Shown here piece by piece: positions 9,356 through 63,929 of a DNA stretch of 64,000 nt. This stretch comes from a virus. Taxonomy: Duplodnaviria > Caudoviricetes. The DNA lies in the IMG/VR virus record IMGVR_UViG_3300037504_000149. One strand, 5' to 3'. The first letter of the stretch is position 1; the number at the start of each line of letters is the position of its first letter. The translations under genes and the position numbers were made by a program. The notes under the pieces are model-generated. The model did not search any database, was not told the origin of the DNA, and saw only the letters and a program-made list of their open reading frames with translations.

Positions 9356-9367
9356 GAAAGGTATTGT

Positions 9368-32427: not shown

Positions 32428-32687
32428 CAACACAAAAAAATTGTGTTACTTTTAGAGCGATGGAACTTGCTGATTCTCGGAGGGTTATGCACGATGCAAA
32501 AGCTAAACTTTTACAAGCGCAAGTGCTTACTGGGATTTCGTTATGCTATGAGATGTTAGAAGTCATTGAAAAGGTTTCTCCTATAGAAGTTAGAGAACAG
32601 TTAGCTAATCGTCTCGAAGGTTTACTAACGACCAGTTGTAATTGTATCGAGATGTGCGATGAGCTAACTGATGGGGAGTTGAGCTAA
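32424..32687 (+). CDS. hypothetical protein
   Basis: Short ORF; start uncertain. Confidence 0.45.
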   Translation: MTTQKNCVTFRAMELADSRRVMHDAKAKLLQAQVLTGISLCYEMLEVIEKVSPIEVREQLANRLEGLLTTSCNCIEMCDELTDGELS

Positions 32688-32691
32688 TGGT

Positions 32692-33075
32692 ATGCTGATG
32701 GACTCCAAATCCATTAATGGGAGTTCAAATCTTCCACTCCCCGCCAAGCCTTCTATACGTTGGGATGTAGTGTCTGGTGTCAAAGAGACGACAATACGTA
32801 TAGGCACTTATATCGATCCTACAGATCTAAGGAGTAGTATGCCTGATGAAACTACGTTAAAGACAGACGATATAGTAGTTCTTCTTCGTGACGTATCTAA
32901 AGCTACTTGTTGGAAAAGTTTTGGATGGCATCTTACATTAGGGTATTTAGAATTATCGATAGCATTTGATGATAATAAAGAGAATAGACTACAAGCATTA
33001 GATAAGTTAATATCAATACTTAAATTAACATCTAAAGATGGGTATCTTGTACATATAACATACGCAATGGAGTGA
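32692..33075 (+). CDS. hypothetical protein
   Basis: ORF within the operon. Confidence 0.55.
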   Translation: MLMDSKSINGSSNLPLPAKPSIRWDVVSGVKETTIRIGTYIDPTDLRSSMPDETTLKTDDIVVLLRDVSKATCWKSFGWHLTLGYLELSIAFDDNKENRLQALDKLISILKLTSKDGYLVHITYAME

Positions 33076-45731: not shown

Positions 45732-46070
45732 CATGTTATGAGGGGGAGTGTAGGGGGAAGGGAGCGGGAGACGTTGAATAGTTACAATATGAATGGGGGA
45801 GTAGAGGGGAGCGGGAGATGTTGAGAGGATGTTGAATAGTTAGAATATGAATAGGGAGGAAGAAGGGGGGGTGATTATTCATATTAAGATCATTCTGAGA
45901 TTTTGCAGGGTATTTATATTATTGATATACCGTACAATCCCCCAATATACGCGCACAAAATTTTGCAACCCCCAATTTTAATTATTCATAATAATTATAT
46001 TCTACCCCCCCCCTGCTCCTTCCCCTGCTCCCGTATTCCTCGCGCTATTATAATTCTACATACCTACCAT

Positions 46071-46209
46071 AAAAGAGTTTAACATAAAACTTCCCTGAAG
46101 TCAATACCTATTTTATTCCATTTTATCCTTGACAAGTTTTCAATCCATATGGTATACTGCCTTCAGAAGATAAAAACGCCCCGGAGGGGGCATAACCTGG
46201 AAGGGAACG
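46071..46209 (+). repeat. cassette module R0 (no terminator)
   Basis: AGTCAA 46099-46104, TTGACA 46129-46134, TATACT 46153, leader hairpin, RBS. Confidence 0.9.
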
Positions 46210-46410
46210 ATGGATAAGGAAAACTTTGATGTATTTTATGCGGCGGCGCAAGCTGTAGCAACACTTAAATCAGCTCGTGCCATTGCCTGTGTCGTTGACG
46301 CTGCTGTCCGTACAAAAGAAACACGGACAGCGCTGAATAAAATCTGTGATGCGCTGAAAACGATGGAATCGGTGCGAAACAGTAACCTAGAAACAATATA
46401 TTCTCGCTAA
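46210..46410 (+). CDS. cassette cargo, 66-aa helical protein
   Basis: Lies between R0 and R1. Confidence 0.8.
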   Translation: MDKENFDVFYAAAQAVATLKSARAIACVVDAAVRTKETRTALNKICDALKTMESVRNSNLETIYSR

Positions 46411-46422
46411 ACATACTACACC

Positions 46423-46655
46423 GCCCCGCTGGAATCCAGCGGGGCTTTTCTTTATCCTGGATATTCGATTATTCTTATATCCTATTTTATATATTCCCCT
46501 TAGTCTTCCCCTTCAAACATAATGCTAACATAAAACTTACCTGAAGTCAATACCTATTTTATTCAATTTTATCCTTGACAATCTAGGAACTAGTATGATA
46601 TAATAGCTTTACAAGATTAGAAACGCCCGCAAGGCGGGCATAACAGGGAGGATAT
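46423..46655 (+). repeat. cassette module R1
   Basis: Terminator GCCCCGCTGG-AAT-CCAGCGGGGC-TTTT, spacer, AGTCAA 46545, TTGACA 46575, leader, RBS. Confidence 0.95.
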
Positions 46656-46838
46656 ATGGAACGGACAACCTATATTGTTATCGGCGGCCAGCAGGTCGGC
46701 ATCACTGGCAACCCCAACGATGACCCGCTGTCCGCCCCGGCGGCCAAGGCGGCGCTGAAGGACTATCGCGCCCGCACCGGCCGGACCGCTGTCCCTATCC
46801 GGCTGGCCAATGGGACGGTATTCTCACGGGGATTCTAG
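46656..46838 (+). CDS. cassette cargo, 60-aa protein
   Basis: GGGAGG RBS; GC-rich. Confidence 0.8.
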   Translation: MERTTYIVIGGQQVGITGNPNDDPLSAPAAKAALKDYRARTGRTAVPIRLANGTVFSRGF

Positions 46839-46846
46839 GTTATTAC

Positions 46847-47076
46847 GCCCCGCTGGAATCCAGCGGGGCTTTTCTATACCTTGTATATTCGATTATTCTT
46901 ATATCCTAATATATTCCCCTTAGTCTCCCCCTTCAAACATAATGCTAACATAAAACTTCCCTGAAGTCAAGACCTATTTTATTCCATTTTATACTTGACA
47001 ATCTAGGAATCCATATGGTATACTACTTTCAGAAGATGAAAACGCCCCGGAGGGGCAAAACTAGGGAGGGGAAAGA
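46847..47076 (+). repeat. cassette module R2
   Basis: Near-identical to R1; AGTCAA 46965, TTGACA 46995. Confidence 0.95.
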
Positions 47077-47328
47077 ATGGAGTATTTATTGCGTCTGACC
47101 CGCGCCCGATATAATGATATACCGATAGATAACATCGGGCAAGCTACGCGAATAAAGGTCAAGAGTATACAAGCCGCTAAGATAGCGGCAACAAGATGGG
47201 CGGAGCAAGTGGCAACACCAAACAAGCCCTATTGTGTCGTTATCTACACAATCGAGGGTACACCTATAATAAGAAAACACAGCTTTACTAAGAAATGGGC
47301 GAAAGCGGGAGAATTCTACTGTACCTAG
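47077..47328 (+). CDS. cassette cargo, 83-aa basic protein
   Basis: GGGAGG RBS. Confidence 0.8.
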   Translation: MEYLLRLTRARYNDIPIDNIGQATRIKVKSIQAAKIAATRWAEQVATPNKPYCVVIYTIEGTPIIRKHSFTKKWAKAGEFYCT

Positions 47329-47334
47329 CATTTA

Positions 47335-47563
47335 CCCCCGCTGGATTCCAGCGGGGCTTTTCTTTATCCTGGATATTCGATTATTCTTATATCCTAATAT
47401 ATTCCCCTTACTCTCCCCTTCAAACATAATGCTAACATAAAACTTCCCTGAAGTCAAGACCTATTTTATTCCATTTTATACTTGACACTCTAGGAACTAG
47501 TATGGTATACTACCTTCAGAAGATGAAAAGCCCGCATAGCGGGCATAACAGGAAGGGAAACGG
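47335..47563 (+). repeat. cassette module R3
   Basis: AGTCAA 47452, TTGACA 47482. Confidence 0.95.
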
Positions 47564-47896
47564 ATGATTTACGAAGTTATTACTCGCGATGAACTCTATC
47601 ACCGTCTGAAGGGGTATAACGACGTATTCTCGTATGAGGGGGCTCGGATAATATACGATTATATTACCGAACTCGGCGATACGGAGCTAGACGTTCCCGA
47701 CATTCACGGCGGGTTTACGGAGTATTCCGATGCTGAGGAAGCGGCAGAGGACATTCTCCCCCCTGATGAGGTCGAGGAAATGCGGAAAGAATTCGCGGAA
47801 TTCCCCGGCCTTGATGATGAATGCTGGAAGGCGCTGGAGCGGGCCGGTGAAACAGTGCTGGGCTCGGCGTCCGGGCCTGTCATTATCGCGGAATAG
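47564..47896 (+). CDS. cassette cargo, 110-aa strongly acidic protein
   Basis: D/E-rich; single gene between R3 and R4. Confidence 0.8.
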   Translation: MIYEVITRDELYHRLKGYNDVFSYEGARIIYDYITELGDTELDVPDIHGGFTEYSDAEEAAEDILPPDEVEEMRKEFAEFPGLDDECWKALERAGETVLGSASGPVIIAE

Positions 47897-47903
47897 TTTT
47901 ATC

Positions 47904-48130
47904 GCCCCGCTGGTATTCCAGCGGGGCTTTTCTATACCTTGTATATTCGATTATTCTTATATATATTCCCCTTACACTTCCCCTTCAAACATAATGCTAA
48001 CATAAAAGTTCCCTGAAGTCAATACCTATTTTATTTAATTTTACACTTGACAATCATTTAATCCGTATGATATAATACCTTTACAAGATTGAAACGCCCC
48101 TACAGGGGCATAACAGGAAAGGGAAGGAAT
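47904..48130 (+). repeat. cassette module R4
   Basis: AGTCAA 48017, TTGACA 48047. Confidence 0.95.
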
Positions 48131-48568
48131 ATGATTTACACCAATCTTGATGAAGCACGCGCCGCGAAGGCGGCGAGCGTAGCAAAGGCGCGAGAGCTGG
48201 AGTCCCGCGCTATCGAAGGTGAGGGGCCTACTTCCACCGAAGCCGAAGAAGTCAGGCATGAACGGTGGATCAAGGAAAACACCCTGGTTGTTACCAGGCA
48301 CGCAGGCCTGGTCGACTACATCAAAGAAGAGTTCATTTATCCCGCGTACCTGGCATCAGACGTGGTATTCTCTCACGTTGAGCAAAAGGACGTGGAGGGG
48401 AAGCACGTGGTTGGCATTTTGCCGCTCCACCTGGCCGCATTGGCAGATAAGGTGACGGTCATCCCCCTGAACCTGACCCCGGCGGATCGAGGTCAGGAAC
48501 TTTCCGCCGAACGGGTGCGGGAAGTGGCCGGTGACCCGGTAACCTACCGGGTCGAGCAGGTGAATTAG
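48131..48568 (+). CDS. Csx16-like protein (putative cyclic-oligoadenylate ring nuclease)
   Basis: VTRHAG...VVGILPLHLAA...L.LTPADRGQELSAE matches the recalled Csx16 pattern SRHPG...IGTLP.HLAA...RG.ELS. Start moved to 48131. Confidence 0.75.
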   Translation: MIYTNLDEARAAKAASVAKARELESRAIEGEGPTSTEAEEVRHERWIKENTLVVTRHAGLVDYIKEEFIYPAYLASDVVFSHVEQKDVEGKHVVGILPLHLAALADKVTVIPLNLTPADRGQELSAERVREVAGDPVTYRVEQVN

Positions 48569-48576
48569 CTCTCACT

Positions 48577-48707
48577 GCCCCGCTGGATTCCAGCGGGGCT
48601 TTTCTATACCTTGTATATTCGATTATTCTTATATCCTATTATATATATATATTACCCTAGTCTCCCCCTTCAAACATAATGCTAACATAAAACTTCCCTG
48701 AAGTCAA
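48577..48707 (+). repeat. cassette module R5 (terminator and reverse promoter only)
   Basis: Similarity ends just after AGTCAA 48702-48707. Confidence 0.9.
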
Positions 48708-48903
48708 GAACTATTTTAATGTATCTAAAACAAGGCAGCACAAGGGTATATTTTAGTCGCCCGTAGAAGTGATATAACGGGCCGTAGATGGCCGTAAAGG
48801 GTGGCAGAGTGGTATAGTATACTTATCTATTGAACGGCCTTAAAATCGCCCTACGGGCATTATATGGAATATCAGGAAAGTTTAATATAGATAAAGTTTT
48901 CTC

Positions 48904-49136
48904 TTGACAGGGAGCAAAGGTTATGATATACTTCCCCCGTAAGATTGAGAAATAGATACCTGAAACGCCCCCCAGAGGGGGCATAAAGGAAAGGGGAATA
49001 AATGAAGGGTTGACAGCGATGGGGAAGTATGATATACTTCCCCCGTAAGATTGAAGATGTAGTAAACGCCCCTACGGGGCACAAAGGAAAGGGGCTAAAA
49101 TTAGGGGTTGACAAGGGTGGGGAAGTATGATATAAT
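48904..49136 (+). promoter_or_regulatory. three tandem promoters, the first two with leader hairpin and RBS but no gene
   Basis: TTGACA-17-TATACT at 48904 and 49010; TTGACA-17-TATAAT at 49108; ~100-bp period. Confidence 0.85.
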
Positions 49137-49145
49137 CCCCTTGAT

Positions 49146-49389
49146 GAGCGTTACCTATAACACAGTATCATTTATTCACTAGAGTTAACAAGGGAGGGAG
49201 GCGCAGGATGAAACACTATCAGCGTAACATCCTGCTGGAACCCGGTTAAATCATCGGGGCGGAAAGTAAGTCGGCCCCGCCCCGGCTTTCCCGGGCCTTA
49301 ACATGGGATACACCGTAGACCTATTGTGATCAACGGTAAATCCGTTGTGACGCTCCCCCGGTCCCTAAACTATGGGGACCGGGGATTTT
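49146..49389 (+). ncRNA. candidate structured ncRNA A with its own terminator
   Basis: End pairing GAGCGTTAC/GTGACGCTC, four internal hairpins, terminator stem 49356-49384. Only a 13-aa ORF inside. Confidence 0.6.
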
Positions 49390-49430
49390 AGTATAGTTAG
49401 TTTATATTATAAGACTGCCGGACTGCCCAC

Positions 49431-49569
49431 AAAAGAGTTTAACATAAAAGTTACCTGAAGTCAATACCTATTTTATTTAATTTTACGCTTGACATTCTAG
49501 GAACTAGTATGATATAATAGCTTTACAAGATTAAAACGCCCCGGAACGGGGCATAACAGGGAGGGAACG
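49431..49569 (+). repeat. cassette module R6 (no terminator, same 5' end as R0)
   Basis: AAAAGAGTTTAACATAAAA..., AGTCAA 49459, TTGACA 49489. Confidence 0.9.
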
Positions 49570-49782
49570 GTGTTTCACTTAAAATTCTACGACGGGACGA
49601 CCGGGAGTGCCGGTTGTTACGGGAGTTTTGATACGCTCGCCGACGCTATGGCTGAGTGTGATACCGTCCCCGGTTGCTCCGGGGAGTCAGGGTATGAGTC
49701 ATCCTCGTTGTATATCGAGGATGACACAGGAGAAGTTGTCGCATCCCTAGGCGCATATTGCGCCGGTTGGGTTGTGGGCTAG
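49570..49782 (+). CDS. cassette cargo, 70-aa acidic protein
   Basis: GGGAGG RBS, GTG start. Confidence 0.75.
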   Translation: MFHLKFYDGTTGSAGCYGSFDTLADAMAECDTVPGCSGESGYESSSLYIEDDTGEVVASLGAYCAGWVVG

Positions 49783-49789
49783 ATTTACG

Positions 49790-49962
49790 GCCCCGCTGAT
49801 ATTCTCAGCGGGGCTTTTCTTTTACCTTGTATATTCGATTATTCTTATATATATCCCCTTACTCTCCCCCTTCAAACATAATGATAACATAAAACTTTCC
49901 TGAAGTCAACCCCTAAATTTCCCTATTAAATCCTTGACATCTATCTGCTGTTTTGATACAAT
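49790..49962 (+). repeat. cassette module R7 (variant; drives an RNA, no leader or RBS)
   Basis: Terminator with compensatory TGA/TCA change; AGTCAA 49904; TTGACA 49934-17-TACAAT. Confidence 0.9.
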
Positions 49963-49969
49963 ACTCGTC

Positions 49970-50102
49970 GAGGTGGCAGCCGCAGTAGGCGCAGGGAAGT
50001 TGAGACCCCTAGACGTAGGACTCCGGTCCCTGTATCCCCGCCGATCACGGGGTGCATGCGGGTGTCGGGATTGTCCGGGCAATCCCCAATCCCGCCCACC
50101 TT
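49970..50102 (+). ncRNA. candidate structured ncRNA B occupying a cassette slot
   Basis: GAGGTGG/CCACCTT closing stem with four internal stems; lies between promoter and terminator; no RBS or ATG-started ORF of meaningful length. Confidence 0.7.
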
Positions 50103-50113
50103 ACATGAAACGG

Positions 50114-50348
50114 CCCCCGCTGGATTCCAGCGGGGCTTTTCTTTTACCTTGTATATTCGATTATTCTTATATCCTAATATATTCCCCTTAGTCTCCCCCT
50201 TCAAACATAATGCTAACATAAAAGTTACCTGAAGTCAATACCTATTTTATTCAATTTTATACTTGACAAGCTATAAACTAGTATGATATACTATCCCCAC
50301 AAGATTAGAAACGCCCCCGGAGGGGGCATAACAAAGGAAGGGGAAGAA
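50114..50348 (+). repeat. cassette module R8
   Basis: AGTCAA 50233, TTGACA 50263. Confidence 0.95.
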
Positions 50349-50861
50349 ATGGGCTGGGATGGTAGGTATATGGATAACACTGTGAAAGCCCGTCAACGAG
50401 TGATGATGGAGACTGTCGGACTGATAGACTTGTCGGTCCGGGGCAATGAAGGGTACGCTGCAGTGAAACATCCCGATATGGAGGCCGTGTTTTGTATGAT
50501 CTTCATTTTCCGGTATTCTGAAGGGGAATTGTGTACAAAGACCTGTACGGAGCTTGACGGCCCGTTTTGTTGGAATTGCCCGCAACGTATTATGAAACAG
50601 CTCACTGCGCCGCTGAACGAGCGGGCGGCGGATTGGCGCGATGCTTGTCGGCTCGCTGCGAAGTTGCGCAAAGCGCGTTATGTTTATCTGGAGCGGTCGC
50701 CGCATGGCACTGACATACGCTTAGTGGAAAAGGTGGCGAATGCTCGGAGTGTTTACCGTGAGATGTATACCGGTGAACTATGGCGGCTGCGCGTTAACAC
50801 TATGATGCACTACGGCGCTCGTCCAGTGGATAAGGACGAAGCCGAGGCGATGTTACGTTAG
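50349..50861 (+). CDS. DUF6927-like protein
   Basis: MGW...YAAV...E.DGP...NCP.RIM..LT.....A.DWR..C. Start moved to 50349. Confidence 0.65.
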   Translation: MGWDGRYMDNTVKARQRVMMETVGLIDLSVRGNEGYAAVKHPDMEAVFCMIFIFRYSEGELCTKTCTELDGPFCWNCPQRIMKQLTAPLNERAADWRDACRLAAKLRKARYVYLERSPHGTDIRLVEKVANARSVYREMYTGELWRLRVNTMMHYGARPVDKDEAEAMLR

Positions 50862-50868
50862 ATTTACC

Positions 50869-51088
50869 GCCCCGCTGGAATCCAGCGGGGCTTTTCTTTA
50901 TCCTTTATATTCAATTATTCTTATATATATATTCCCCTTAGTCTTCCCCTTCAAACATAATGCTAACATAAAACTTCCCTGAAGTCAATACCTATTTTAT
51001 CCAATTTTACACTTGACAAGCTATAAACTAGTATGATATAATAGCTTTACAAGATTGATAGCAGTTAACATTAAAAGGGGAGGGCTCC
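50869..51088 (+). repeat. cassette module R9
   Basis: AGTCAA 50983, TTGACA 51013. Confidence 0.9.
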
Positions 51089-51958
51089 ATGCGTGTTGAT
51101 AAGAAAAAGGAAAAGGTACTCACACACTTAGAGGATATTTTATCGGCGCTGAAGAATGACCCGGCGGCGCTGAAGCGCTTGTCGTGGATTAAACCGTGGA
51201 GTAACCCACCCCGTAACTTGGCCGGGCGTCAATATAACGGTGGTAATGTACATATTCTGAACTTTGCCTCCGTCGTTAGTAGTTATAAGCATAATAGGTG
51301 GGGAACGTTCAATCAATATAAGAAGTATGGGGCCAGCATTATTAAGGGCTCCAGTGCGACGCCTATCTATTACTATAATGTAAAGAAATACACTAAAGAA
51401 GATGAGAATGGAGAGGAAAAGGAATATACTTATTATGTGTTTAAGTATTTTAATCTTTTCAATATCGCACAAACGACATTGGAGATTGAGCGGCTCCCCG
51501 GCGTCGAGTATAAAGAAGTAGAATATACCACACCGGAACGAATCCGGAGGGGATATTGTGACAATGGCGGCCCGGAGTATCAGGAATCCGGTGACCGTGC
51601 CTTTTATCGGCCCGGAGGGGATTTAGTCTGCTTGCCGCCCCGCGAAACATTCCATTCATCAGCGGAGTATGCCAGTACGCTATATCATGAACTGGTGCAT
51701 AGCACCGGGCATGAAAAGCGGCTGGACCGGGGATTTAGCTTGTCTCGGGGCGGGGAAGGGTACGCCCTAGAGGAACTGGTCGCAGAGACTGGAGCGCTAA
51801 TCCTTTGTGACCGGAGCGGTATTAACCCGGACGTGAATAACTTCAAGGCGTATATTGCTAGCTGGCTTCAGGCGGTAAAATCTGACCAGCGTTACAAAAC
51901 TTTCTCCGCATTGTCACAAGCGGAGAAGGCCGTTGACTACATTCTAGGGGAAAGGTAG
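51089..51958 (+). CDS. ardC: ArdC-family antirestriction protein (ssDNA-binding domain plus zincin-like domain)
   Basis: WIKPW, Y.G.N, WGTFNQ, FNIAQT, AFY.P..D.V.LP, HELVHSTGHEKRLDR, YALEELVAE, YIASWL. Confidence 0.92.
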   Translation: MRVDKKKEKVLTHLEDILSALKNDPAALKRLSWIKPWSNPPRNLAGRQYNGGNVHILNFASVVSSYKHNRWGTFNQYKKYGASIIKGSSATPIYYYNVKKYTKEDENGEEKEYTYYVFKYFNLFNIAQTTLEIERLPGVEYKEVEYTTPERIRRGYCDNGGPEYQESGDRAFYRPGGDLVCLPPRETFHSSAEYASTLYHELVHSTGHEKRLDRGFSLSRGGEGYALEELVAETGALILCDRSGINPDVNNFKAYIASWLQAVKSDQRYKTFSALSQAEKAVDYILGER

Positions 51959-51996
51959 ACTTTCCCCTTGACATTATAGAGCATTTTATGGTACTA
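51947..51996 (+). promoter_or_regulatory. palindrome fused to a promoter (type-2 module, copy 1)
   Basis: GGGGAAAG-GTAGA-CTTTCCCC immediately followed by TTGACA 51968-17-TACTAT. Confidence 0.75.
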
Positions 51997-52039
51997 TTGC
52001 CTTAGAAGATTGAAAAACAAAACAAGGGAAGGGGAAAAC

Positions 52040-52612
52040 ATGGCCACGGGAAACTTTCACTATCATACGAATTTGTGTTATGCTTTGCCTGATGACGGTC
52101 CAAACGTATTAGAAGATGCGTTAGATCGTATAAAGGTCGAAGCGGCCCGTATGGGGTTGACGCTGGAAAAGTACCTAGCACCGGAAAAATTCGATACAAA
52201 ATCATACGGTCGGCACTATTATACTCACCTTGCTGAGTATAGTGTAGAACAGCCGTATTATGGCGGGTTCATTACTGTTTCTGCTGGTATTGGCGTCCGT
52301 GCTGGATACTATACTGGTGGATGCTATGACTGCTGCATTATTGCAGAGTTTTACGGCAGTAAGATAGCTGATAGTCACTACGATGACTCCTATACGGATG
52401 TAGATGAGATTGAGGAACTTTTGCTAGAATGTAGCGATGTACCAAAGGGTTTTATTCAGCACGCTGCAATTAAGGTGCGGGATAAAGCCGATGAACTGAT
52501 TGATGAGGTAGAAGATACGACAAACCGCTTACTCGCTGCCGCTGCTGAAGTGAAACTGGCTTGTCTAGGCTCGGCCAGTAACGGCGAGACGTTTTATCGG
52601 AAGGTGGATTAG
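52040..52612 (+). CDS. hypothetical protein
   Basis: Start moved to MATGNF after AGGGAAGGGG. Confidence 0.75.
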   Translation: MATGNFHYHTNLCYALPDDGPNVLEDALDRIKVEAARMGLTLEKYLAPEKFDTKSYGRHYYTHLAEYSVEQPYYGGFITVSAGIGVRAGYYTGGCYDCCIIAEFYGSKIADSHYDDSYTDVDEIEELLLECSDVPKGFIQHAAIKVRDKADELIDEVEDTTNRLLAAAAEVKLACLGSASNGETFYRKVD

Positions 52613-52620
52613 GTTAGATA

Positions 52621-52723
52621 GGGGAAAGCATATGCTTTCCCCTTGACTTTCACGTTGTCTTATGGTACAGTTGTCTTAGAAGATTAAACAACGCCCCGTC
52701 GGGGCATAACTGGGAGGGAAAAG
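52621..52723 (+). promoter_or_regulatory. type-2 module, copy 2
   Basis: 22-bp perfect palindrome GGGGAAAGCATATGCTTTCCCC, TTGACT, leader GCCCC-GTC-GGGGC-ATAAC, RBS. Confidence 0.8.
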
Positions 52724-53353
52724 ATGAAACTGTACAAGCGTAACGGCAAGATGTACCTTGCCGTCGAAGGACAAGAGATTGAGATAGCCGACATTCGAGA
52801 CGCTGTTAAGGCGCTCGGCGGTACGGTCGAAACGTCAACCTATCGCAAAGTCGAGCTGTTTCATGATTACGATTGTCCTAATCCGCTGGAGGGTGATTCG
52901 GAAGTTTTCATCTATCATAAGCGGAATCGAGAGTTTGAAGTCGGTCAAGATATTGAAGCGGCTGGCGGCTTCGAGGGCGTCCGAGAAGCGCATCCCGATG
53001 CTGTTATCGCGCCCCTGTACGCATACGTGCATTCTGGCGTGTGCTTCAGTACCAAGTACACCTATCCTTTCACTTGTCAATGGGATGCTGGATTGACGGG
53101 TTGCATCGTCGGTCCGAGTAAAGAAGCGATTCTTGGCGCTATCGAGGAATTGAATCATTATGTAGCAGGGAACTGCTACGGATATGAGGTGCAAGATGAA
53201 TGGGGTGAGGTGCTGGATTGTTGTGGCGGTTTCTGGGGATATATCGACGACGAACTTTTGAAGGAATATGCGATGGCGCATTGCCCCGACCCGGAGAACA
53301 TGGACGTTGTTTTTAGCGACCCCTTCGGCCGAGAAGAGAAGGTTGAGTGGTAG
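52724..53353 (+). CDS. acidic hypothetical protein
   Basis: GGGAGG RBS. Confidence 0.75.
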   Translation: MKLYKRNGKMYLAVEGQEIEIADIRDAVKALGGTVETSTYRKVELFHDYDCPNPLEGDSEVFIYHKRNREFEVGQDIEAAGGFEGVREAHPDAVIAPLYAYVHSGVCFSTKYTYPFTCQWDAGLTGCIVGPSKEAILGAIEELNHYVAGNCYGYEVQDEWGEVLDCCGGFWGYIDDELLKEYAMAHCPDPENMDVVFSDPFGREEKVEW

Positions 53354-53361
53354 GTAGGATA

Positions 53362-53412
53362 GGGGAAAGCATATGCTTTCCCCTTGACTTTACCGTTATC
53401 TTGTGGTATACT
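53362..53412 (+). promoter_or_regulatory. type-2 module, copy 3
   Basis: Same 22-bp palindrome, then TTGACT-17-TATACT. Confidence 0.8.
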
Positions 53413-53463
53413 TGAGGCAACGTAGCATTGAGAGTAACGTTACATCAAAGGGAAGGAAAAAAG

Positions 53464-53610
53464 ATGATTATGTCACTGAAGATGCGTGCGGAGGCCGCCG
53501 AGAAAAAGGCCGCCGAGTATGCGGCTCGCGATCAGAATGAGGCCAGTGCGGAAATGCACCGCCGCGCCGAGGCTATCCGACGCCGGATGGACCGGGAAGC
53601 GGGGAGGTAA
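53464..53610 (+). CDS. 48-aa helical protein
   Basis: Start moved to follow AGGGAAGG. Confidence 0.6.
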   Translation: MIMSLKMRAEAAEKKAAEYAARDQNEASAEMHRRAEAIRRRMDREAGR

Positions 53611-53612
53611 AG

Positions 53613-54089
53613 ATGCCTTGCACCGAATGTCAAAAAGGACAGTGTGAATGGTATGACGCTGTTATGAGCGGCCTTGCTACGCATTCCGACTTTCCGTTTA
53701 TGGACGCTCGCGGGCGCTGTCTACGCAATGCTGACCCCGATGAACTGTTGCGCCGGGGGATCGACCCGGTATACGATGAATGCTCGGAGTACGAATATGT
53801 CCCCCACGATTGGGAATATCCTGATGGCATGGGGACGCAGGTCCGTGTCCGCTGTTACGATAACGGTGGGCAGACTGTTGACCGGTATACTATTCTGTAT
53901 CAGTATATCGGTGATAAGCATATACTTAACCCGGTATGGGCATTGGCAGTCGGCGCTACGCCGCGTCACTTTTGTCAGCATACCGCTGCCGTTGCGGGTG
54001 ATCACTTGGGCAATCCTATTGCCTTTGATGACCTGCCCGAATCGGTCCAGCGGGCGGCGCTGAAGGATACGCTGAAGGATACCAAGTAA
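53613..54089 (+). CDS. hypothetical protein
   Basis: GGAGG RBS; hairpin 54095-54116 follows. Confidence 0.7.
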   Translation: MPCTECQKGQCEWYDAVMSGLATHSDFPFMDARGRCLRNADPDELLRRGIDPVYDECSEYEYVPHDWEYPDGMGTQVRVRCYDNGGQTVDRYTILYQYIGDKHILNPVWALAVGATPRHFCQHTAAVAGDHLGNPIAFDDLPESVQRAALKDTLKDTK

Positions 54090-54145
54090 CGATATGGCGG
54101 TCCTCTATGGGCCGCCTTAACTATTCTTTTACAGAAAGGATAACA

Positions 54146-54721
54146 ATGTTTACCGACTTCAACGATATATTCGATAACTACCAAGAGGACGACTTGTGGT
54201 TGGATCCGGTAGATGAGAATGAGATATATTTCGGTACGCTGATCAATACGTTTCCGGGCACTGAAGCGGTGGTACATCAGCTTGATGCGGCGTCACACTT
54301 GGGATATATTCAGTATCAGAATACTGAGAAGGAAGTATTCTTTAGTATTGCTACTCTGAAGGAATTGGTCCCTGTGGACAATTTCTCTGGAGAAGATGAA
54401 TGGAAAGAAGAGCTAGAGGATACCTTGAAGGTGTGGGGTGGCCGCATTGACGGCGATGAAGTCTACCTTGTATTGCGAGCGTATGACGTTATTTATACGC
54501 CGCTGGAGCGAATCAAAGAGAAGTTGGATGCCGGGATGTATTCCGCAGAGCGGCTTGAATTTTGGTGCTGGCAAGCCTATAGTGTTGCCACCGTTGACGG
54601 GTGGGTTAGCATCCGTAACGGCCGGTTCAAGCATTCTCGACAAGAGATGATGCAGGAACTGGTGGACATTATCGAAGGTCGCGTTACGCTTGATGATATG
54701 CGGCATGGGGAACGAAACTAA
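54146..54721 (+). CDS. acidic hypothetical protein
   Basis: Start moved to MFTDFN after AAGGA. Confidence 0.7.
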   Translation: MFTDFNDIFDNYQEDDLWLDPVDENEIYFGTLINTFPGTEAVVHQLDAASHLGYIQYQNTEKEVFFSIATLKELVPVDNFSGEDEWKEELEDTLKVWGGRIDGDEVYLVLRAYDVIYTPLERIKEKLDAGMYSAERLEFWCWQAYSVATVDGWVSIRNGRFKHSRQEMMQELVDIIEGRVTLDDMRHGERN

Positions 54722-54759
54722 AAGGATGAGTATGACATTACTTACAAGAAAGGATAGCA

Positions 54760-55038
54760 ATGGGTATCAGTAATTATATGGATAACCGCGAGAAGTGGCT
54801 TAAAAACCTTAAAGCCGGTTCGCTAGTTTGGTGCGCCGAGCTGGGCCGAGGCGGATGCTGGAAGGCTCAGATTAACGATGTTACAGAGCGTACTATTGAA
54901 GTGCAAGCCGATGCGTGGCGTACTGTCGTAGTGGACAGACAGACTGGAATGCAACGTGACGGCACGTTGCGTATCTACCAAAGTATGCCACGTAACATTA
55001 TGAGCCCAGTACAGGAAGTGCGGGCTAAATCATACTAA
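54760..55038 (+). CDS. hypothetical protein
   Basis: AAGGA RBS. Confidence 0.65.
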   Translation: MGISNYMDNREKWLKNLKAGSLVWCAELGRGGCWKAQINDVTERTIEVQADAWRTVVVDRQTGMQRDGTLRIYQSMPRNIMSPVQEVRAKSY

Positions 55039-55054
55039 ACACAGGGAGATAGTT

Positions 55055-55477
55055 ATGAGTGCGTACATGGTCAGTCCGACGACGATTGAGAATATCTTGG
55101 GGTACTTCGAAAGTAAGCTACCTGATACGGTTAAAGATGTGCTAAGTGAGTATGATTTGGGACTTAGTTGGAGACGACTAGGTCGTGAGTTGGTAGCTAT
55201 GAATGCCCGTGCTATTATGGCGCGGTATGATGAAGACCCGTTAGGTAAAGATTGGCAGAGTTGGATGCCTGCACCTGACATATACGATAATCTACGGCCT
55301 AATACTGCCGTGACGCAGATACAGGCGGTTAAATCACTAAAGTGCTACTTGTATCAGTGTAGTGAGGGTGATGTACCTAAAGAGAAGTTGTATAATATGC
55401 TAAAGAAGATAGAGGGCGCGACAATTCGCGCAATTGTCGAGAATTCACAAGAATATCAAGATGCAGATTGGGGATAG
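55055..55477 (+). CDS. hypothetical protein
   Basis: GGGAG RBS; motif LKCYLYQCSEG. Confidence 0.7.
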   Translation: MSAYMVSPTTIENILGYFESKLPDTVKDVLSEYDLGLSWRRLGRELVAMNARAIMARYDEDPLGKDWQSWMPAPDIYDNLRPNTAVTQIQAVKSLKCYLYQCSEGDVPKEKLYNMLKKIEGATIRAIVENSQEYQDADWG

Positions 55478-55559
55478 ATGAGCTTACTAGGTTACATTGG
55501 GTTAACAGTGCTTATAGGTATAACTTGCTGGATTTACCAGTACAGTTTGGAGGTTAAAG

Positions 55560-56075
55560 ATGAGTAACATTATTAACGTAGTAAACAAACCTAACATTTA
55601 CCTAGTTGGCATTACGTTAGGAACGGGAGATTATTTTACGCATAGCGGTAGGTATGCGGAAATCGGAGACCTGAAGCAATACCGTCAGTCTTTACTTGAC
55701 GATTACCATAATGGAGCTACTTATTTAACGTACATTTATAGTGTAGATACTTTGGCAACGATCCCCCGTCATTACTATACCGGACCCTATCTTATTCAGT
55801 CAGTCGAAGATTTAGAGGATAACTTGGATTATCTGATGGGATTGGGTATGGTATGGGGCAAGTATGGTAGTGACTTTCTACTGATGGAGAGCGACGAGAA
55901 TGCCGAAGCATGGGCTGACGCGACGGCCCTTCGCATATCTGATGAATCGCCGTATGACGACGATACTAAAGAGCTGCTACGGGAAGTGCTGTCTAATGCT
56001 CTGCTTAATAATCCTGGGCAGCTTATGCGGTTGATTGGGACTGAGATTATTGAAGAGAATTACTTTAATGAGTAA
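55560..56075 (+). CDS. hypothetical protein
   Basis: GGAGG RBS. Confidence 0.7.
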   Translation: MSNIINVVNKPNIYLVGITLGTGDYFTHSGRYAEIGDLKQYRQSLLDDYHNGATYLTYIYSVDTLATIPRHYYTGPYLIQSVEDLEDNLDYLMGLGMVWGKYGSDFLLMESDENAEAWADATALRISDESPYDDDTKELLREVLSNALLNNPGQLMRLIGTEIIEENYFNE

Positions 56076-56083
56076 CTTTACAC

Positions 56084-56113
56084 TTGACAACCTACCATAC
56101 TCTATGGTAGAAT
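56084..56113 (+). promoter_or_regulatory. sigma70 promoter with internal inverted repeat
   Basis: TTGACA-18-TAGAAT; CTACCATA-CTC-TATGGTAG. Confidence 0.75.
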
Positions 56114-56151
56114 ATGGGTAGAAACGATAAACAAAGGAAGGGGAAAGGGAT

Positions 56152-56646
56152 ATGGCTTGCAGATATACCAAGAAAGGTAAAGAGCTATTCGGCAAACACA
56201 TTCGCCGCTCGCTAGATGCTGCGAAGGTGCCCGTGCCACGTTACAACGTCATTCATGGCATCGTGAACGGCGATAGTGACAGTGGCGTCATTGCGGCATT
56301 GAGTAATGGCGTCCAGTGGCAGGTGACTAACTGCCCCGAAGACTTCGAGGAAGGTACACTGGACGATTACGTCCAGCTTCTGGAGTACGCTAAGGATAAC
56401 ATCGCCGCTGTTACCTATCTGGCGGAAATGCTGGATGTATACTTGGGCGATGAAGTGTGCTTGGTGCCGTCACATCAGACGATACATGCTATCACGCACT
56501 ATGGTATAGGGTACTACAGAACCTGGGCCGAGGAAAATCAGGCTCGGGAGTGGGTAAAGGGAACTGTTAGTGAGTATGCCCATTTACTGCGTACTTATAT
56601 GCAGCCTGAGCTTGTGGAGTACCTTATAGATTCACTTAAGCGATAA
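56152..56646 (+). CDS. hypothetical protein
   Basis: GGAAGGGG RBS. Confidence 0.7.
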   Translation: MACRYTKKGKELFGKHIRRSLDAAKVPVPRYNVIHGIVNGDSDSGVIAALSNGVQWQVTNCPEDFEEGTLDDYVQLLEYAKDNIAAVTYLAEMLDVYLGDEVCLVPSHQTIHAITHYGIGYYRTWAEENQAREWVKGTVSEYAHLLRTYMQPELVEYLIDSLKR

Positions 56647-56665
56647 CTGTCTAGGAGGCGTTACT

Positions 56666-57001
56666 ATGAGTCGGTATTACCGTATGAGTTTCGAGATCAC
56701 GGGGCATGACGATAAGAAGCAGGAAGCGATCTGCTCCGTTGTGAGCGATGCCTACGGCATCGATATGTTCCCTGATGGTAAGGGAATCTACGGTAGCGGG
56801 GAGTATACTCTCGCTGGTGGACAGACTGAGGATGAGTTCGCTCAGGAGGCTACGCTGCTGGTATGGAAGGCCAACGGCAAGCCTTGCCGAGTAAGTATTA
56901 TGCAGTATTATTTGGAAGACCCGCCGTGTACACTATATGAATACACTGAGGACGATGGGGCTATGCTGTCCTTGTATAAAGCCCAACAGAAGGAGAGTTG
57001 A
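56666..57001 (+). CDS. hypothetical protein
   Basis: AGGAGG RBS. Confidence 0.7.
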   Translation: MSRYYRMSFEITGHDDKKQEAICSVVSDAYGIDMFPDGKGIYGSGEYTLAGGQTEDEFAQEATLLVWKANGKPCRVSIMQYYLEDPPCTLYEYTEDDGAMLSLYKAQQKES

Positions 57002-57002
57002 T

Positions 57003-57380
57003 ATGATTCATATCTTACCTATTAAGTTTGTGTGGTATAACACTACGTCGCATGGGTACTGTTGGACTACCGATGAAGGATACCCTAATGGGTATCAAGT
57101 GTGCCAAAACACTATCGCAGGTATCCGCGACATCGTTTTAGAAGACCCCGACATCACATGCAATCGCGGCATGGACCCACTGTTGGACAAAGTATTTTGC
57201 CCTGATTGTCTTGATGATTTTCTGCCTCACGTTTTACCGGATATGTGCGCTGATACCGGATTACGGAACGTACTGGAATCCGTTTCAGCAAGTTATAAGG
57301 TTGTCATTCACTTGGCCGCTGATGAAATTGTTATCACAGTGGGGGAACTTCAGGACGAGATGGCTGAGACAGAAAGTTGA
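57003..57380 (+). CDS. hypothetical protein
   Basis: Start moved to MIHILP after AAGGAG. Confidence 0.65.
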   Translation: MIHILPIKFVWYNTTSHGYCWTTDEGYPNGYQVCQNTIAGIRDIVLEDPDITCNRGMDPLLDKVFCPDCLDDFLPHVLPDMCADTGLRNVLESVSASYKVVIHLAADEIVITVGELQDEMAETES

Positions 57381-57405
57381 CTTTACGATGAATGACTGCT
57401 ATACT
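57377..57405 (+). promoter_or_regulatory. sigma70 promoter
   Basis: TTGACT-17-TATACT with TGn. Confidence 0.8.
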
Positions 57406-57410
57406 GTTTA

Positions 57411-57572
57411 CGGTATCCGCTAGGTTCCCCTTCCCTACCTGGCGGCGGGCGCAGGGGACGAGATGCCCTGTCGGGTGCGCCGTATCTACCCGAGACCTAA
57501 ATACGGTAGCGACCTGTCGCGCTGAGTCGGCAGGAAGTATGGGGGAGTGGCCCTCCCCACTCCCCCTAAACT
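57411..57572 (+). ncRNA. candidate structured RNA C (sRNA or 5' leader)
   Basis: Five hairpins plus a CCGTAT/ATACGG pseudoknot between the promoter and the RBS of the clamp-like gene. Confidence 0.6.
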
Positions 57573-57592
57573 TTCCTAAAGGAGATGTATGT

Positions 57593-58801
57593 ATGACTGT
57601 TAAGCAGTTAAAGAAGATTTTGGATACGCTGAAAAAGTTCTATATGTGGTATAATTGCGGATATTACGCGCTTACGTATACGCGGGTTGAGGTTACGCCG
57701 CTAGGCACAATTTTCGACTTCCTACACAAGGATCGTAGGTTGCGAATTATTACAGAAGAAGAGACGCCGCAGGAACATTGTGGTGAGGTGTACCTTGATG
57801 AAGAGCGTACTAAAACGCTTAAACGGTTGCTTACCAAGAAGTCTACTAAGGATGGCATTACACTAAGTATTAGTAATGATAAGCTAGTGGTAGCTTTCAA
57901 AAAAGGCGATTATAAATTTTCATCTACGCCACCTAAAGATACAAGCGGTTTTGAGGATGTGATAAGTGCATGGAGTAATGCTGCGCACTATGAGCGGGTG
58001 AGCTTGTCTGGTGCGGAGTGGTATAATGAGGTTACACGCATAGGTAAAGTGTGTGCGAAGGACAATGAAAATCGCGAAAAGCTACACTATGTGTACACGC
58101 ATTATTGGGATGGTAAGTTGCGTCTTGGTGCTGTTGATGGACACCGTTTAGTTGACAAGATTTATCGTCCTTTTGCTACAGTTGACACTGCTGATGCTTA
58201 CTTGCACAAGAACGATGTGGCGCTTATCGGAACTGTGTGTAAGAAAGCTGATAGCGTAGATATATGTTATCAGATGAATAGCAGTAAACAAGAAGGAAAC
58301 CGTGATTATGTACTGCGTACATACTATGATGGTATTACTACGTTGGTGTACGGTCCCGCCGCAGAGATAGAGGCACCGTACTGGCAAGAGTTTAAGCAGT
58401 CGCAGACAGGATGGTATGAGGCGCTCCTTGTGGAAGGTGAACGTCTATACACTACAATTGACTTAGCACGTATGGAAGCTGCGTTGAAGCACGTTATACC
58501 ATTGGCGCGTATGAACAGCGATAATAGGGTTAAGTTGACACTGGGTTGTGACATTACGGTGTCTACAAGATCGTGGAATGATGACGTAGCTACCTATACT
58601 ATAGAACATAATAGTAAAGACCTAGGAGCGCGAGTAGTCTACATTAACGGTGTAGAATTACTTGAGCAAGTACAGTTTCTAAAAGTGTTGGGGTTTGAAA
58701 CGACTGAATTGTCTGTTAAAGATGGAGATGAGTCGTTAACTGCGGTAGTCCTAGAGGTGCCGGATTGCGTGTTTTTACAACTGCCTATGCGGGCACCCTA
58801 A
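57593..58801 (+). CDS. DNA sliding clamp (DnaN/beta)-like protein
   Basis: REKLHYVY....LRLGAVDGHRL matches the beta-clamp domain II motif; C-terminal YIN...L.E...LQLPMR. Start moved to 57593. Confidence 0.65.
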   Translation: MTVKQLKKILDTLKKFYMWYNCGYYALTYTRVEVTPLGTIFDFLHKDRRLRIITEEETPQEHCGEVYLDEERTKTLKRLLTKKSTKDGITLSISNDKLVVAFKKGDYKFSSTPPKDTSGFEDVISAWSNAAHYERVSLSGAEWYNEVTRIGKVCAKDNENREKLHYVYTHYWDGKLRLGAVDGHRLVDKIYRPFATVDTADAYLHKNDVALIGTVCKKADSVDICYQMNSSKQEGNRDYVLRTYYDGITTLVYGPAAEIEAPYWQEFKQSQTGWYEALLVEGERLYTTIDLARMEAALKHVIPLARMNSDNRVKLTLGCDITVSTRSWNDDVATYTIEHNSKDLGARVVYINGVELLEQVQFLKVLGFETTELSVKDGDESLTAVVLEVPDCVFLQLPMRAP

Positions 58802-58805
58802 AAAC

Positions 58806-58834
58806 TTGACATTTACCTTATCGTGTGGTATTAT
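58806..58834 (+). promoter_or_regulatory. sigma70 promoter
   Basis: TTGACA-17-TATTAT with TGn. Confidence 0.75.
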
Positions 58835-58863
58835 AGAGTTGACCTACTAAGGAAGGGAAGGTT

Positions 58864-59520
58864 ATGGGCCAGGAAGAGTTACTAAACTACATTGAAGATG
58901 TCAAGACGGACATCGAGGCTACTCTGCAGAAAGAGTATGACGCCGTAGTGGAACGTTACACCGAGCGGGAATTCGCCACCCCGCCTGATTGGGGTGCGGG
59001 CAATCCTACGCTGCTCGAAACGTCTTGTTACGACCAGCACGTTTATGAGGCGATGCGGCACGCCCCGAAGGGCATTTACATTCTCGATGCCAACCTGAAC
59101 ACGGAGTATTCGTTCCAGTTTCCGGCATTAGAGTTGCCGAGTTATAACCTGATTACTGAGGTACTGTCTAGCGCAGTGGTACGTCAGATTATCAAAAACA
59201 TCGCGGATTTTGATGTGGACTTTTACGCACTAGAGGACGGTGTGCCGCTATTCACTCAGTACGAAACTTGCCCTATCATGGCATACCGCATCGATCCGGT
59301 TCCGGAGTACGATCACTATACTTTGGAAAACTTTCATCATGCGTATCTCGTTCGTCACGACGGGGTGTGGAGTGTTTTTTGTAAGAATGGTAAAGTACGT
59401 GCCTTGGCGGCGTATCAGCAAGGTCTGCTGCGTCTGCTTGAAGTAGAGGACTTTGACACGGCGATGGGTGAATTCGTTGAGTCGATGGATACCAAGATCG
59501 ACTACACTAAACTTGCTTAG
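58864..59520 (+). CDS. hypothetical protein
   Basis: GGAAGG RBS. Confidence 0.7.
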   Translation: MGQEELLNYIEDVKTDIEATLQKEYDAVVERYTEREFATPPDWGAGNPTLLETSCYDQHVYEAMRHAPKGIYILDANLNTEYSFQFPALELPSYNLITEVLSSAVVRQIIKNIADFDVDFYALEDGVPLFTQYETCPIMAYRIDPVPEYDHYTLENFHHAYLVRHDGVWSVFCKNGKVRALAAYQQGLLRLLEVEDFDTAMGEFVESMDTKIDYTKLA

Positions 59521-59530
59521 GAAGGTAGTT

Positions 59531-59785
59531 ATGCCGAAGTATAAACTGGAAATACCTTATCTGGAGTTGTGGTACTGTACGGCTATTGTTGAGGCGGATT
59601 CCGCCGAAGATGCTGTACAGAAATATAACGAGAGTCTAACTGGATCCCCGCGTACAGATGACCCGGATGGGAGTGAGTTTGTGGAAACTCTGGGAGTGGC
59701 GGAAGATCAACCTTTCTATGCTCAAGAAGTTGAAGAGCATACGACTTATGAACCTATTGGAGAGAGTGTGCGTATAGACCTCTAA
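59531..59785 (+). CDS. small acidic protein, DpnD/PcfM-like motif
   Basis: VEADSAEDAVQK; similar to 62738. Confidence 0.55.
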   Translation: MPKYKLEIPYLELWYCTAIVEADSAEDAVQKYNESLTGSPRTDDPDGSEFVETLGVAEDQPFYAQEVEEHTTYEPIGESVRIDL

Positions 59786-59802
59786 AGGAGGGAAGGATTA
59801 CG

Positions 59803-59988
59803 ATGGAAGTTATTCGAGGCAAGTACGGTGAGGCTATTGGGTACAGGGAGCGCTGCGGTTCACGTATTTATCTACGTGACGAAGCAGGACAAACCCTCGG
59901 ATACTACGACGAGGGTATGGATCGAACGTATGACAATGTTGGCATGGAAGTTGGTCAGGGTAACATCCTGTCTAGCCTTCTGCCGTAG
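59803..59988 (+). CDS. hypothetical protein
   Basis: GGAGG RBS. Confidence 0.65.
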   Translation: MEVIRGKYGEAIGYRERCGSRIYLRDEAGQTLGYYDEGMDRTYDNVGMEVGQGNILSSLLP

Positions 59989-60110
59989 AGGACTTTTCCT
60001 AGTTAGTCCTAAAATAAACTAGGTGGTGGACCTCCGCATGAATGCGGTTTGCCCCTTGCCACCCCTCGATCTTTGTGGCAGTGTCCCGTCGAAGCGAGGG
60101 ATAGACGGGA
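59989..60110 (+). other. intergenic structured element (H-type pseudoknot and kissing hairpins)
   Basis: AGGACT/AGTCCT with CCTAGTT/AACTAGG; hairpin loops CCCTCG and CGAGGG are complementary. Confidence 0.55.
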
Positions 60111-60129
60111 ACAACTATACAGAGGGAAT

Positions 60130-60597
60130 ATGAGAATTACTATTATAGATGATATGATTAGTCGTTTAGAGCAGTTTGAAGAAAACTTACCTAAAGGACA
60201 TACCGTTCGTACACCTTTGGACCTAGAAATTGCAGAGGTTACAAAGGGGTGTATTGAAAATACTTTAATGTGTGGAGAAGTTTTACTAGAGGAAGGTTGT
60301 GATGTATTATATTTAGATCATGACTTCGGACCGGATACTTTACAAGGCGCGTATGGCGGTGTCACGTCAGGTACTGGAATGGATTTATTGCAAGGGATTA
60401 TAAAAAACTTGCTGCCCTGCCCTACTTGTGCTATAATTGTACATAGCGCAAACGTTCCGGCAGCGATTCAAATGGTTGCTAAGGCGCAGGTGCTTGATAT
60501 TCCAGTAGTTAAAATGTGGGCACCATGGGCTGTTAAAGGTTGTAAATTAACTTCTGTTATCAACGAGGATAATAATGATAATATGGGAACTACCTGA
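60130..60597 (+). CDS. cyclic-phosphate-processing receiver domain (cREC-like) protein
   Basis: IIDD, LYLDHDFG, GTGMDLL, IIVHSANV. Start moved to 60130. Confidence 0.8.
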   Translation: MRITIIDDMISRLEQFEENLPKGHTVRTPLDLEIAEVTKGCIENTLMCGEVLLEEGCDVLYLDHDFGPDTLQGAYGGVTSGTGMDLLQGIIKNLLPCPTCAIIVHSANVPAAIQMVAKAQVLDIPVVKMWAPWAVKGCKLTSVINEDNNDNMGTT

Positions 60598-63544: not shown

Positions 63545-63929
63545 GGGGCTGATAAGGGTTCGACGTGCGAGTAAAAGTGAGGTAGCATCCCGTGGTTGGT
63601 CTCTAGGCCACGTAAAAAAGAGACCAAACAACAACAGCCGAAAATGCTGTTCCCTTGGCTGCTTAAAAAGCCGCTCCTCTATGGAGCTAGGCTCGTAGCC
63701 CGCCCCCGGAAAGGTTTCTCTGCACCTGACTGGATAAGGCGTCAAAAAGCAGGGGTCCGACTTGGAGTTACCTAATCGCTCCTAAAAGGACTACAGAGTA
63801 ATTAGGTAGGGTGCGCGAGACTGTGCCGTATCAGCCGGACCGCACCGACACGACATGATACGGCTATGGATGTAGATGCCGAAGCGGCACTTGACACGGA
63901 CGCGGGTTCGATTCCCGCCAGCTCCACCA
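63545..63929 (+). ncRNA. ssrA: tmRNA, tag AENAVPLAA
   Basis: Acceptor stem GGGGCTG/CAGCTCC with G3:U, ACCA end, T-arm GCGGGTTCGATTCCCGC, pseudoknot pk1, tag frame 63637-63666 ending LAA-stop. Confidence 0.97.

Follow-up and report, generated by a model that had tools for sequence, protein, structure and literature searches.

The slot that opens at position 49934 in a phage cassette array is, in our judgement, a genuine orphan small RNA gene (probability about 0.65-0.7). It combines a promoter of its own, a body of about 133 nt that is predicted to fold into a five-way junction, and the terminator that is standard in the array. With so few unpaired bases, recognition by a protein is favoured over base pairing, and the RNA would most likely be a protein-binding one. 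All positions refer to the window, the whole stretch of 64,000 nucleotides that was analysed, which comes from a contig of 229,864 bp that belongs to an uncultured phage (JGI/IMG record).

Anatomy of the slot

The slot lies in an array (about 46000-51090) with 8-10 copies of a module of 180-230 bp. In each module, a terminator hairpin is followed by a conserved spacer with a minus-strand promoter-like site, by a plus-strand promoter with a TG-extended -10 box, and then by an AAGAT box, a GC leader hairpin, the motif AUAAC and a strong ribosome-binding site (RBS). One small open reading frame (ORF) is the usual content between two modules. The features in and around the slot are as follows.

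49789..49824, plus strand: terminator of the preceding cassette, which holds a 70-codon ORF; a variant of the array terminator with a stem at 49789-49815 and a T-run (row R7 of the module alignment)
49825..49933, no strand assigned: shared inter-cassette module, copy R7, with the conserved AACATAAAA..CCTGAAGTCAA box
49909-49881, minus strand: promoter-like site in R7, TTGACT-17-TATCAT
49934..49962, plus strand: RNA promoter, with -35 box TTGACA (49934-49939), a 17-nt spacer, TG (49954-49955) and -10 box TACAAT (49957-49962)
49970..50102, plus strand: five-way-junction RNA body, delimited from the MFE fold and pairing probabilities
50103..50113, plus strand: linker ACAUGAAACGG, 11 nt, mostly single-stranded, joining the body to the terminator
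50114..50146, plus strand: standard array terminator, a GC-rich hairpin plus CUUUUCUUUU (family D4), which doubles as the start of the next module, R8

An earlier note on this DNA, made from the letters alone, had described a promoter TTGACA-17-TACAAT, a structured RNA and the standard terminator, and had remarked that the leader hairpin and RBS of protein cassettes are missing. These elements are all found. The promoter is present at 49934-49962, matches 11 of the 12 consensus positions and carries the TG; the terminator consists of a stem-loop at 50115-50135 followed by the T-run; and in the module alignment the slot has neither the AAGAT box nor the leader hairpin, the AUAAC or the RBS that protein cassettes have. 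The same alignment shows that the identity of layout with the other modules ends at the -35 box, and that the spacer and the -10 box of the slot promoter are unique to the slot and not copied from a module. Copying from module to module cannot have preserved these parts, and their agreement with the consensus counts in favour of a real RNA gene. With a typical spacing of 7 nt from the -10 box, the start is predicted at 49969/49970, that is, at the first base of the closing helix P1.

Predicted fold of the RNA body

In the MFE fold (-63 kcal/mol), 49970-50104 forms a five-way junction made up of eight helices.

49970-76/50096-102: P1, the 7-bp closing helix, GAGGUGG/CCACCUU
49979-81/49988-90: P2
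49991-97/50027-33: P3
50002-04/50021-23: P3a, inside P3
50008-11/50016-19: P3b, inside P3
50036-40/50048-52: P4
50058-62/50091-95: P5
50067-74/50079-86: P5a, inside P5

All stems that had been listed from inspection of the letters reappear in this fold, namely GAGGUGG/CCACCUU, GCC/GGC, CAGGGA/UCCCUG, CCCCG/CGGGG and GCGGG/CCCGC, together with the inner stems CCUA/UAGG within CAGGGA/UCCCUG and the 8-bp hairpin within GCGGG/CCCGC. Mean pairing probabilities are 0.81-0.99 for each of the eight helices, and the MFE structure has a frequency of 0.166 in the ensemble. The fold is the same with the terminator added and at temperatures from 25 to 55 C. Including the terminator hairpin, the predicted transcript is about 175 nt long. 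Nearly all bases of the predicted RNA are in helices; no unpaired stretch is longer than the linker at 50103-50113, whose AAAC pairs with the terminator U-run in the full-length fold.

Against dinucleotide shuffles, the body scores z = -2.9, and z = -3.8 with the terminator. Local segments of 135 nt have a mean z of -1.14 (sd 1.48), with lower scores for segments that contain a terminator, so that the energy alone is unremarkable. As to architecture, when the transcript body was shuffled 500 times, 2 of the shuffles closed end to end around at least three inner branches, and 10% closed end to end in some way. Among 1310 real local segments, 20 (1.5%) have closed folds with at least four branches. 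The best of these reaches -53.4 versus -63 for the RNA, which is the most stable closed multi-branch fold (at least four branches) in 20 kb.

The architecture tests, on shuffles and on local segments alike, are post hoc, and their statistics are supportive of the structure, not decisive. GC-rich protein cargo nearby has a comparable ensemble sharpness, as for example in the segment at 49592 in the upstream ORF, and the minus strand of the slot folds equally well. Elevated GC content was considered as a signal of non-coding RNA and dropped, because the protein cargo is equally GC-rich. The predicted structure thus appears real on paper and somewhat unusual, short of statistical proof.

RNA family searches and tRNA-like outline

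At gathering thresholds, only tRNA and tmRNA families of Rfam reach threshold anywhere in the window. No family, 6S RNA among them, does so in the slot. With the E-value limit relaxed to 10, the slot has only weak matches that are driven by the terminator hairpin (the best with 21 bits, versus a threshold of 49.5 bits), and none to a family of the tRNA clan or to a CRISPR-repeat, SRP, Y-RNA, pRNA, riboswitch or ribozyme family. ARAGORN reports neither a tRNA nor a tmRNA in the slot at default or 80% thresholds, and implausible models only at 50-60%. The view that the RNA is not a tRNA, an SRP RNA or a CRISPR repeat holds in these searches.

The outline of the fold is nevertheless reminiscent of a tRNA. 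The 7-bp P1 is followed by two unpaired nucleotides, 8 and 9, which form a 2-nt linker, and then by a 3-bp first arm, GCC/GGC, as in class II tRNAs. The 5-bp P5 abuts the 3' strand of P1 without a linker, so that the two form a 12-bp stack as in a tRNA minihelix. Between these parts lie a long second arm and a 5-bp arm whose loop has 7 nt and which sits where a long variable arm would be.

The loops do not follow suit. There is no T-loop (UUCRANY), as P5 leads across a 4x4 internal loop to an 8-bp hairpin capped by CCGG. The loop of the first arm, GCAGUA, does not contain the GG of a D-loop. An anticodon loop is also missing: the second arm, of 43 nt, ends in a 4-nt loop, GACG, and in the sole 7-nt loop, CCGAUCA, a C stands at each of the two key positions of an anticodon loop (U33 and purine 37). 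The 3' side reads ACAUG and provides no CCA end. Without a T-loop, the GG of a D-loop, an anticodon loop and a CCA end, the RNA cannot decode. A class II tRNA with a long variable arm was accordingly rejected: the outline fits, the loops and the CCA end do not, and the detectors are negative. For some protein the RNA may serve as a tRNA-shaped object; it is not a tRNA.

Other RNA types were considered and dropped. A retron non-coding RNA would call for a reverse transcriptase, and there is none nearby; a phi29-type pRNA has no Rfam match and belongs to the wrong phage type; and a CsrA/RsmA sponge does not fit, as the GGA motifs are in stems instead of loops.

Searches for relatives of the slot

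By blastn, the slot has no match among 50,697 phage records and 72,556 plasmids. An exact 21-mer was not found in IMG/VR, and the module patterns had no match in IMG/VR, in JGI metagenomes or in GTDB genomes. For a structure-aware search we used three patterns in which loops and junctions were fixed and stems were free, and rescored the resulting loci with an RNA covariance model. In IMG/VR, two of the patterns gave 2 loci each and the third gave 0; 49 loci were found in JGI metagenomes and 0 in GTDB genomes. None of them passed rescoring. The best locus (L022, 15.8 bits) does not have the second arm and was set aside, as it looks like a chance match. Searching the window with the covariance model yielded no paralogues of the RNA, and the downstream protein of 163/170 residues, used as an anchor, matched only itself. 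Since the homologue search came back empty, there is no covariation support for the helices.

Coding alternatives in the slot

Two open frames cross the slot. On the plus strand, 49934-50191 (72-85 codons) is the only long one; it opens within the -35 box, is not preceded by a Shine-Dalgarno sequence, and extends past the terminator into the next module. On the minus strand, 49941-50219 (92 codons) starts inside the reverse promoter of the next module, also without an RBS. The public record has this frame as a called gene, so that a predicted protein is on file for it. By our estimate, an open frame of such length arises by chance about one time in three at 65% GC.

A full HMMER scan of 1.8 billion representative proteins for relatives of the 92-codon frame gave low-complexity matches only, and two word-based searches brought up no relative, the word-indexed one retrieving the frame itself and nothing else, which makes it a singleton. 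PHROGs has no match to any frame of the slot. Despite the two open frames and the entry in the public record, we consider it extremely improbable that the slot encodes a small protein on either strand, given the missing RBS, the positions of both frames relative to terminator and reverse promoter, and the empty searches. The 92-codon call is very likely an annotation artefact and, as it lies across the RNA slot in the public record, a small warning on annotation.

RNA cargo in place of protein cargo, as suggested by the earlier note, fits the anatomy of the slot, with its own promoter, a predicted start at the closing helix and a terminator. It also fits the missing RBS, leader and plausible ORF, and the lack of a protein-family match in any frame.

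The cassette array and its phage

All long ORFs of the window are on the plus strand. They encode, among others, an SbcC/Rad50-like ATPase, a class II ribonucleotide reductase, and both subunits of a topoisomerase II of the gyrase type. The window also holds a tRNA-Trp(CCA) at 32673-32746 and a tmRNA at 63545-63929 (137.9 bits, tag peptide ENAVPLAA). GC content is about 34% in the block of replication genes (1-40000) versus about 46-50% in the cassette region (46000-60000), and single cargo genes have a GC content as high as 72%. This step, together with the GC content of single cargo genes, suggests a foreign origin of the cargo. Proteins of the region with recognisable domains include the following.

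48089-48568: Cas_VVA1548 (Csx16-like) protein, array cargo
51089-51958: protein with ArdC-N and zincin-peptidase domains, array cargo
60049-60597: cREC_REC-domain protein (cyclic-phosphate-processing receiver), kept in a related contig (L002) at 9223-9690

The cREC_REC protein hints at RNA-end or cyclic-nucleotide chemistry in the region.

No close relative of the phage was found among 50,697 deposited phages, where the best topoisomerase matches have less than 40% identity. Similarity of the topoisomerase II to that of T4-like phages is only distant (about 27% identity for the best matches). Used as a route to related phages, the topoisomerase had no match in IMG/VR, and a reduced terminator-promoter pattern led to a single contig, which is unrelated. 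The ArdC-like protein was the route to two short-read contigs, L001 (1.6 kb), which is from the same phage, and L002, which is from a relative. Run SRR12689834 is likewise from the same phage. Contig L002 is a Logan contig from run SRR25621649; it has about 86% nucleotide identity to the window across 51-62 kb, and its ArdC-like protein is 92% identical. L001 and L002 both start within the module directly before ardC, and the RNA slot lies outside both.

The same module is present upstream of ardC in L002. After ardC, the window has a 200-codon gene (52010-52612), versus an unrelated 83-codon gene in L002 (1066-1317), with collinear flanks. An unrelated gene between collinear flanks shows directly that cassettes are replaced, and cargo is therefore swapped at module boundaries.

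Proposed reading of the slot

If the slot is a small RNA gene, a strong promoter of the sigma-70 type with an extended -10 box would direct transcription from the first G of the 7-bp helix, or from one base before. The transcript would fold into a single compact five-way junction that leaves hardly any of its sequence unpaired, and transcription would end at the intrinsic terminator that is common to every neighbouring cassette. The RNA would be made alongside other early, individually promoted phage cargo, including the ArdC-like and Csx16-like proteins, and would act as a stable protein-binding decoy or scaffold. In the most specific version, a host factor with specificity for tRNA-shaped or structured RNA would be titrated. 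The sequence shows the promoter, the terminator, the lack of RBS and ORF, and the predicted fold; that the RNA is transcribed, where exactly it starts and stops, that it binds a protein and that it has to do with defence are our inferences. The whole statement, a free-standing small RNA that is made early and whose function lies in being bound, is tentative, and we would give it somewhat less than even odds. In its favour are the nearly all-helical RNA, in which no unpaired stretch exceeds 11 nt, the compact junction with its tRNA-like stack, and an array whose recognisable cargo is of anti-defence type.

An anti-defence role as decoy or sponge, which had also been put forward in the earlier note, is a guess by analogy with the ArdC-like and Csx16-like cargo nearby. 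This is guilt by association, which speaks against the functional reading, as most array cargo has no assigned function. The RNA showed no similarity to the RNA of a defence system, and nothing connects it with one such system in particular. There is a precedent for phage RNAs in counter-defence in the Racrs (PMC10651486), and tRNA and tmRNA fragments associate with a type III CRISPR complex via an anti-CRISPR protein (PMC11662646). It is possible, if unlikely, that the slot represents a new class of counter-defence cargo, namely a tRNA-outlined five-way-junction decoy with its own early promoter in a swappable cassette, which would titrate a host protein. The target of such a decoy would be a protein of host immunity or RNA surveillance, one that recognises either structured RNA in general or the acceptor/T-stem stack.

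Instead of a gene, the slot could hold non-functional DNA, either decayed or captured, that is, a GC-rich fragment and possibly a degenerate tRNA relic between a promoter and a terminator. The fold would then be what any stretch of this length with 65% GC can give. Such an origin would agree with the singleton status of the slot sequence in all searches, with a z value that is within the local spread, and with coding cargo that is comparably well defined; the 10% of shuffles that close, and the 1.5% of local segments that are closed with at least four branches, point in the same direction, and the array has apparently empty units at 48890-49140. The empty heads retain leader hairpin and RBS, however, whereas the slot is cleanly without both and has its own consensus promoter. 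Moreover, the predicted start is exactly on the closing helix, no local segment is as stable with the same architecture, and the eight helices are of high probability. On balance, non-functional DNA seems rather unlikely, although it deserves to be taken seriously.

Two further possibilities accept a functional RNA and differ in how it would work. A trans-acting small RNA could use the 11-nt linker or the loops as a seed for base pairing with host or phage mRNA, in line with the layout of a terminator-ended small RNA that has an unpaired stretch directly before the terminator. Nucleotides 23-32 of the RNA (CAGGGAAGUU, 49991-50000) are also exactly complementary to the box AACTTCCCTG, which is found in five modules (at 46088, 46954, 47441, 48691 and 50972). 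A 10-nt match is at chance level, however, with about 11 such matches expected in the window and a local alignment score within that of shuffles, and the nucleotides concerned are inside helix P3, in an RNA that is nearly all locked in helices. We regard a base-pairing mode of action as improbable. A cis-acting element would be either a put-like RNA for terminator read-through or a ligand-sensing aptamer that controls the next terminator. The position of a structured RNA directly between promoter and terminator, with co-oriented genes downstream, would suit this purpose, and the 5' strand of P4, CCCCGC, could, as read from the letters, compete for the GCGGGG of the terminator. Yet every downstream gene has its own promoter, Rfam has no match to a known antiterminator or riboswitch family, and the ensemble contains no convincing anti-terminator alternative fold, which makes control in cis very improbable.

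Comparison with known systems

The array is PeSL-like, an already known kind, and orphan structured phage RNAs are likewise common. PeSL (promoter-early stem-loop) cassettes have been described in T4-type phages (PMC2839356; PMC4122927). As in PeSL regions, a composite of terminator and early promoter is repeated between single small genes in a variable region, and whole cargo is replaced between close relatives at module boundaries, here between the window and L002. The modules of the present array are longer, however (about 180-230 bp), and include a leader hairpin for the mRNA as well as an additional promoter on the minus strand; the phage has no demonstrable T4 affiliation; and in place of an ORF the slot holds an RNA with a promoter variant of its own. 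What is new here is the cassette payload, an RNA that has its own promoter, is predicted to fold into a five-way junction, belongs to no known family and is located among anti-defence genes.

Phage T4 encodes two stable RNAs, species 1 and 2 (rnaC and rnaD), which are about 120-140 nt long, have tRNA-like paired ends and do not decode. They are located within the tRNA cluster and cut from a common precursor, and have no known role. The RNA of the slot is similar in being phage-encoded, in size and in its predicted tRNA-like paired ends. It differs by its private promoter and terminator, its protein-cassette neighbours and the lack of a T-loop.

Bacterial Y RNAs (YrlA) mimic tRNA (PMC4201824). 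They are also non-coding and similar in size, carry a tRNA-like module with several arms, and work by binding proteins. In contrast to them, the RNA of the slot lacks a T-loop and has no Rfam match (to Y-RNA models too, if Rfam includes them), and the window shows no Ro/Rsr gene. Racrs are small non-coding RNAs with promoters that are found among phage anti-defence genes and act as decoys for immune proteins; they are single CRISPR-repeat mimics of about 30-40 nt (PMC10651486). The slot, by comparison, has a 133-nt five-way junction with no match to any Rfam family, CRISPR-repeat models among them. Finally, a collection of structured-RNA candidates from phages contains unclassified RNAs, some of them tRNA-like and many with Rho-independent terminators; they were defined by covariation across many genomes, and orphan phage RNAs are common (PMC10690425). 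The present RNA differs from these candidates in being a singleton without covariation.

Regions of promoter-terminator cassettes in phages are regarded as stores of small accessory proteins. A folded-RNA payload, if true, would mean that such arrays also trade RNA genes, and would add one more candidate to a very short list of RNA-based phage effectors. Should the decoy class exist, RNA cargo would be a regular currency of PeSL-like anti-defence arrays. As a single unconserved sequence, the RNA slot is at present of value as a lead instead of a result. The unit is self-contained, with promoter, 133-nt body and terminator, so that it can be synthesized and tested directly.

Other units of the array

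The 70-codon ORF upstream of the RNA slot (49570-49782) has a GTG start and neither homologues nor family matches. It is exceptionally structured, with -65 kcal/mol and an ensemble diversity of 5.4 for the segment at 49592, and z = -5.7 for the segment at 49700.

At 48890-49140 there are three tandem heads, each made up of promoter, leader hairpin and RBS (repeat families D5 and D10), of which the first two are without a gene. They look like vacated cassette heads.

The cassette leaders (46170-50345) have a hairpin of the GCCCC/GGGGC type that is followed by AUAAC. We take this to resemble the hairpin-plus-handle end of type I-E CRISPR repeats (CCCCGC..GCGGGG AUAAACCG), a likeness that may be a coincidence.

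A second ORF-poor structured unit, at 49140-49392, has its own promoter and a different terminator (49356-49384). It folds with -98 kcal/mol (z = -4.1), has no Rfam match at E-values up to 1, and includes a 13-codon ORF after a strong Shine-Dalgarno sequence.
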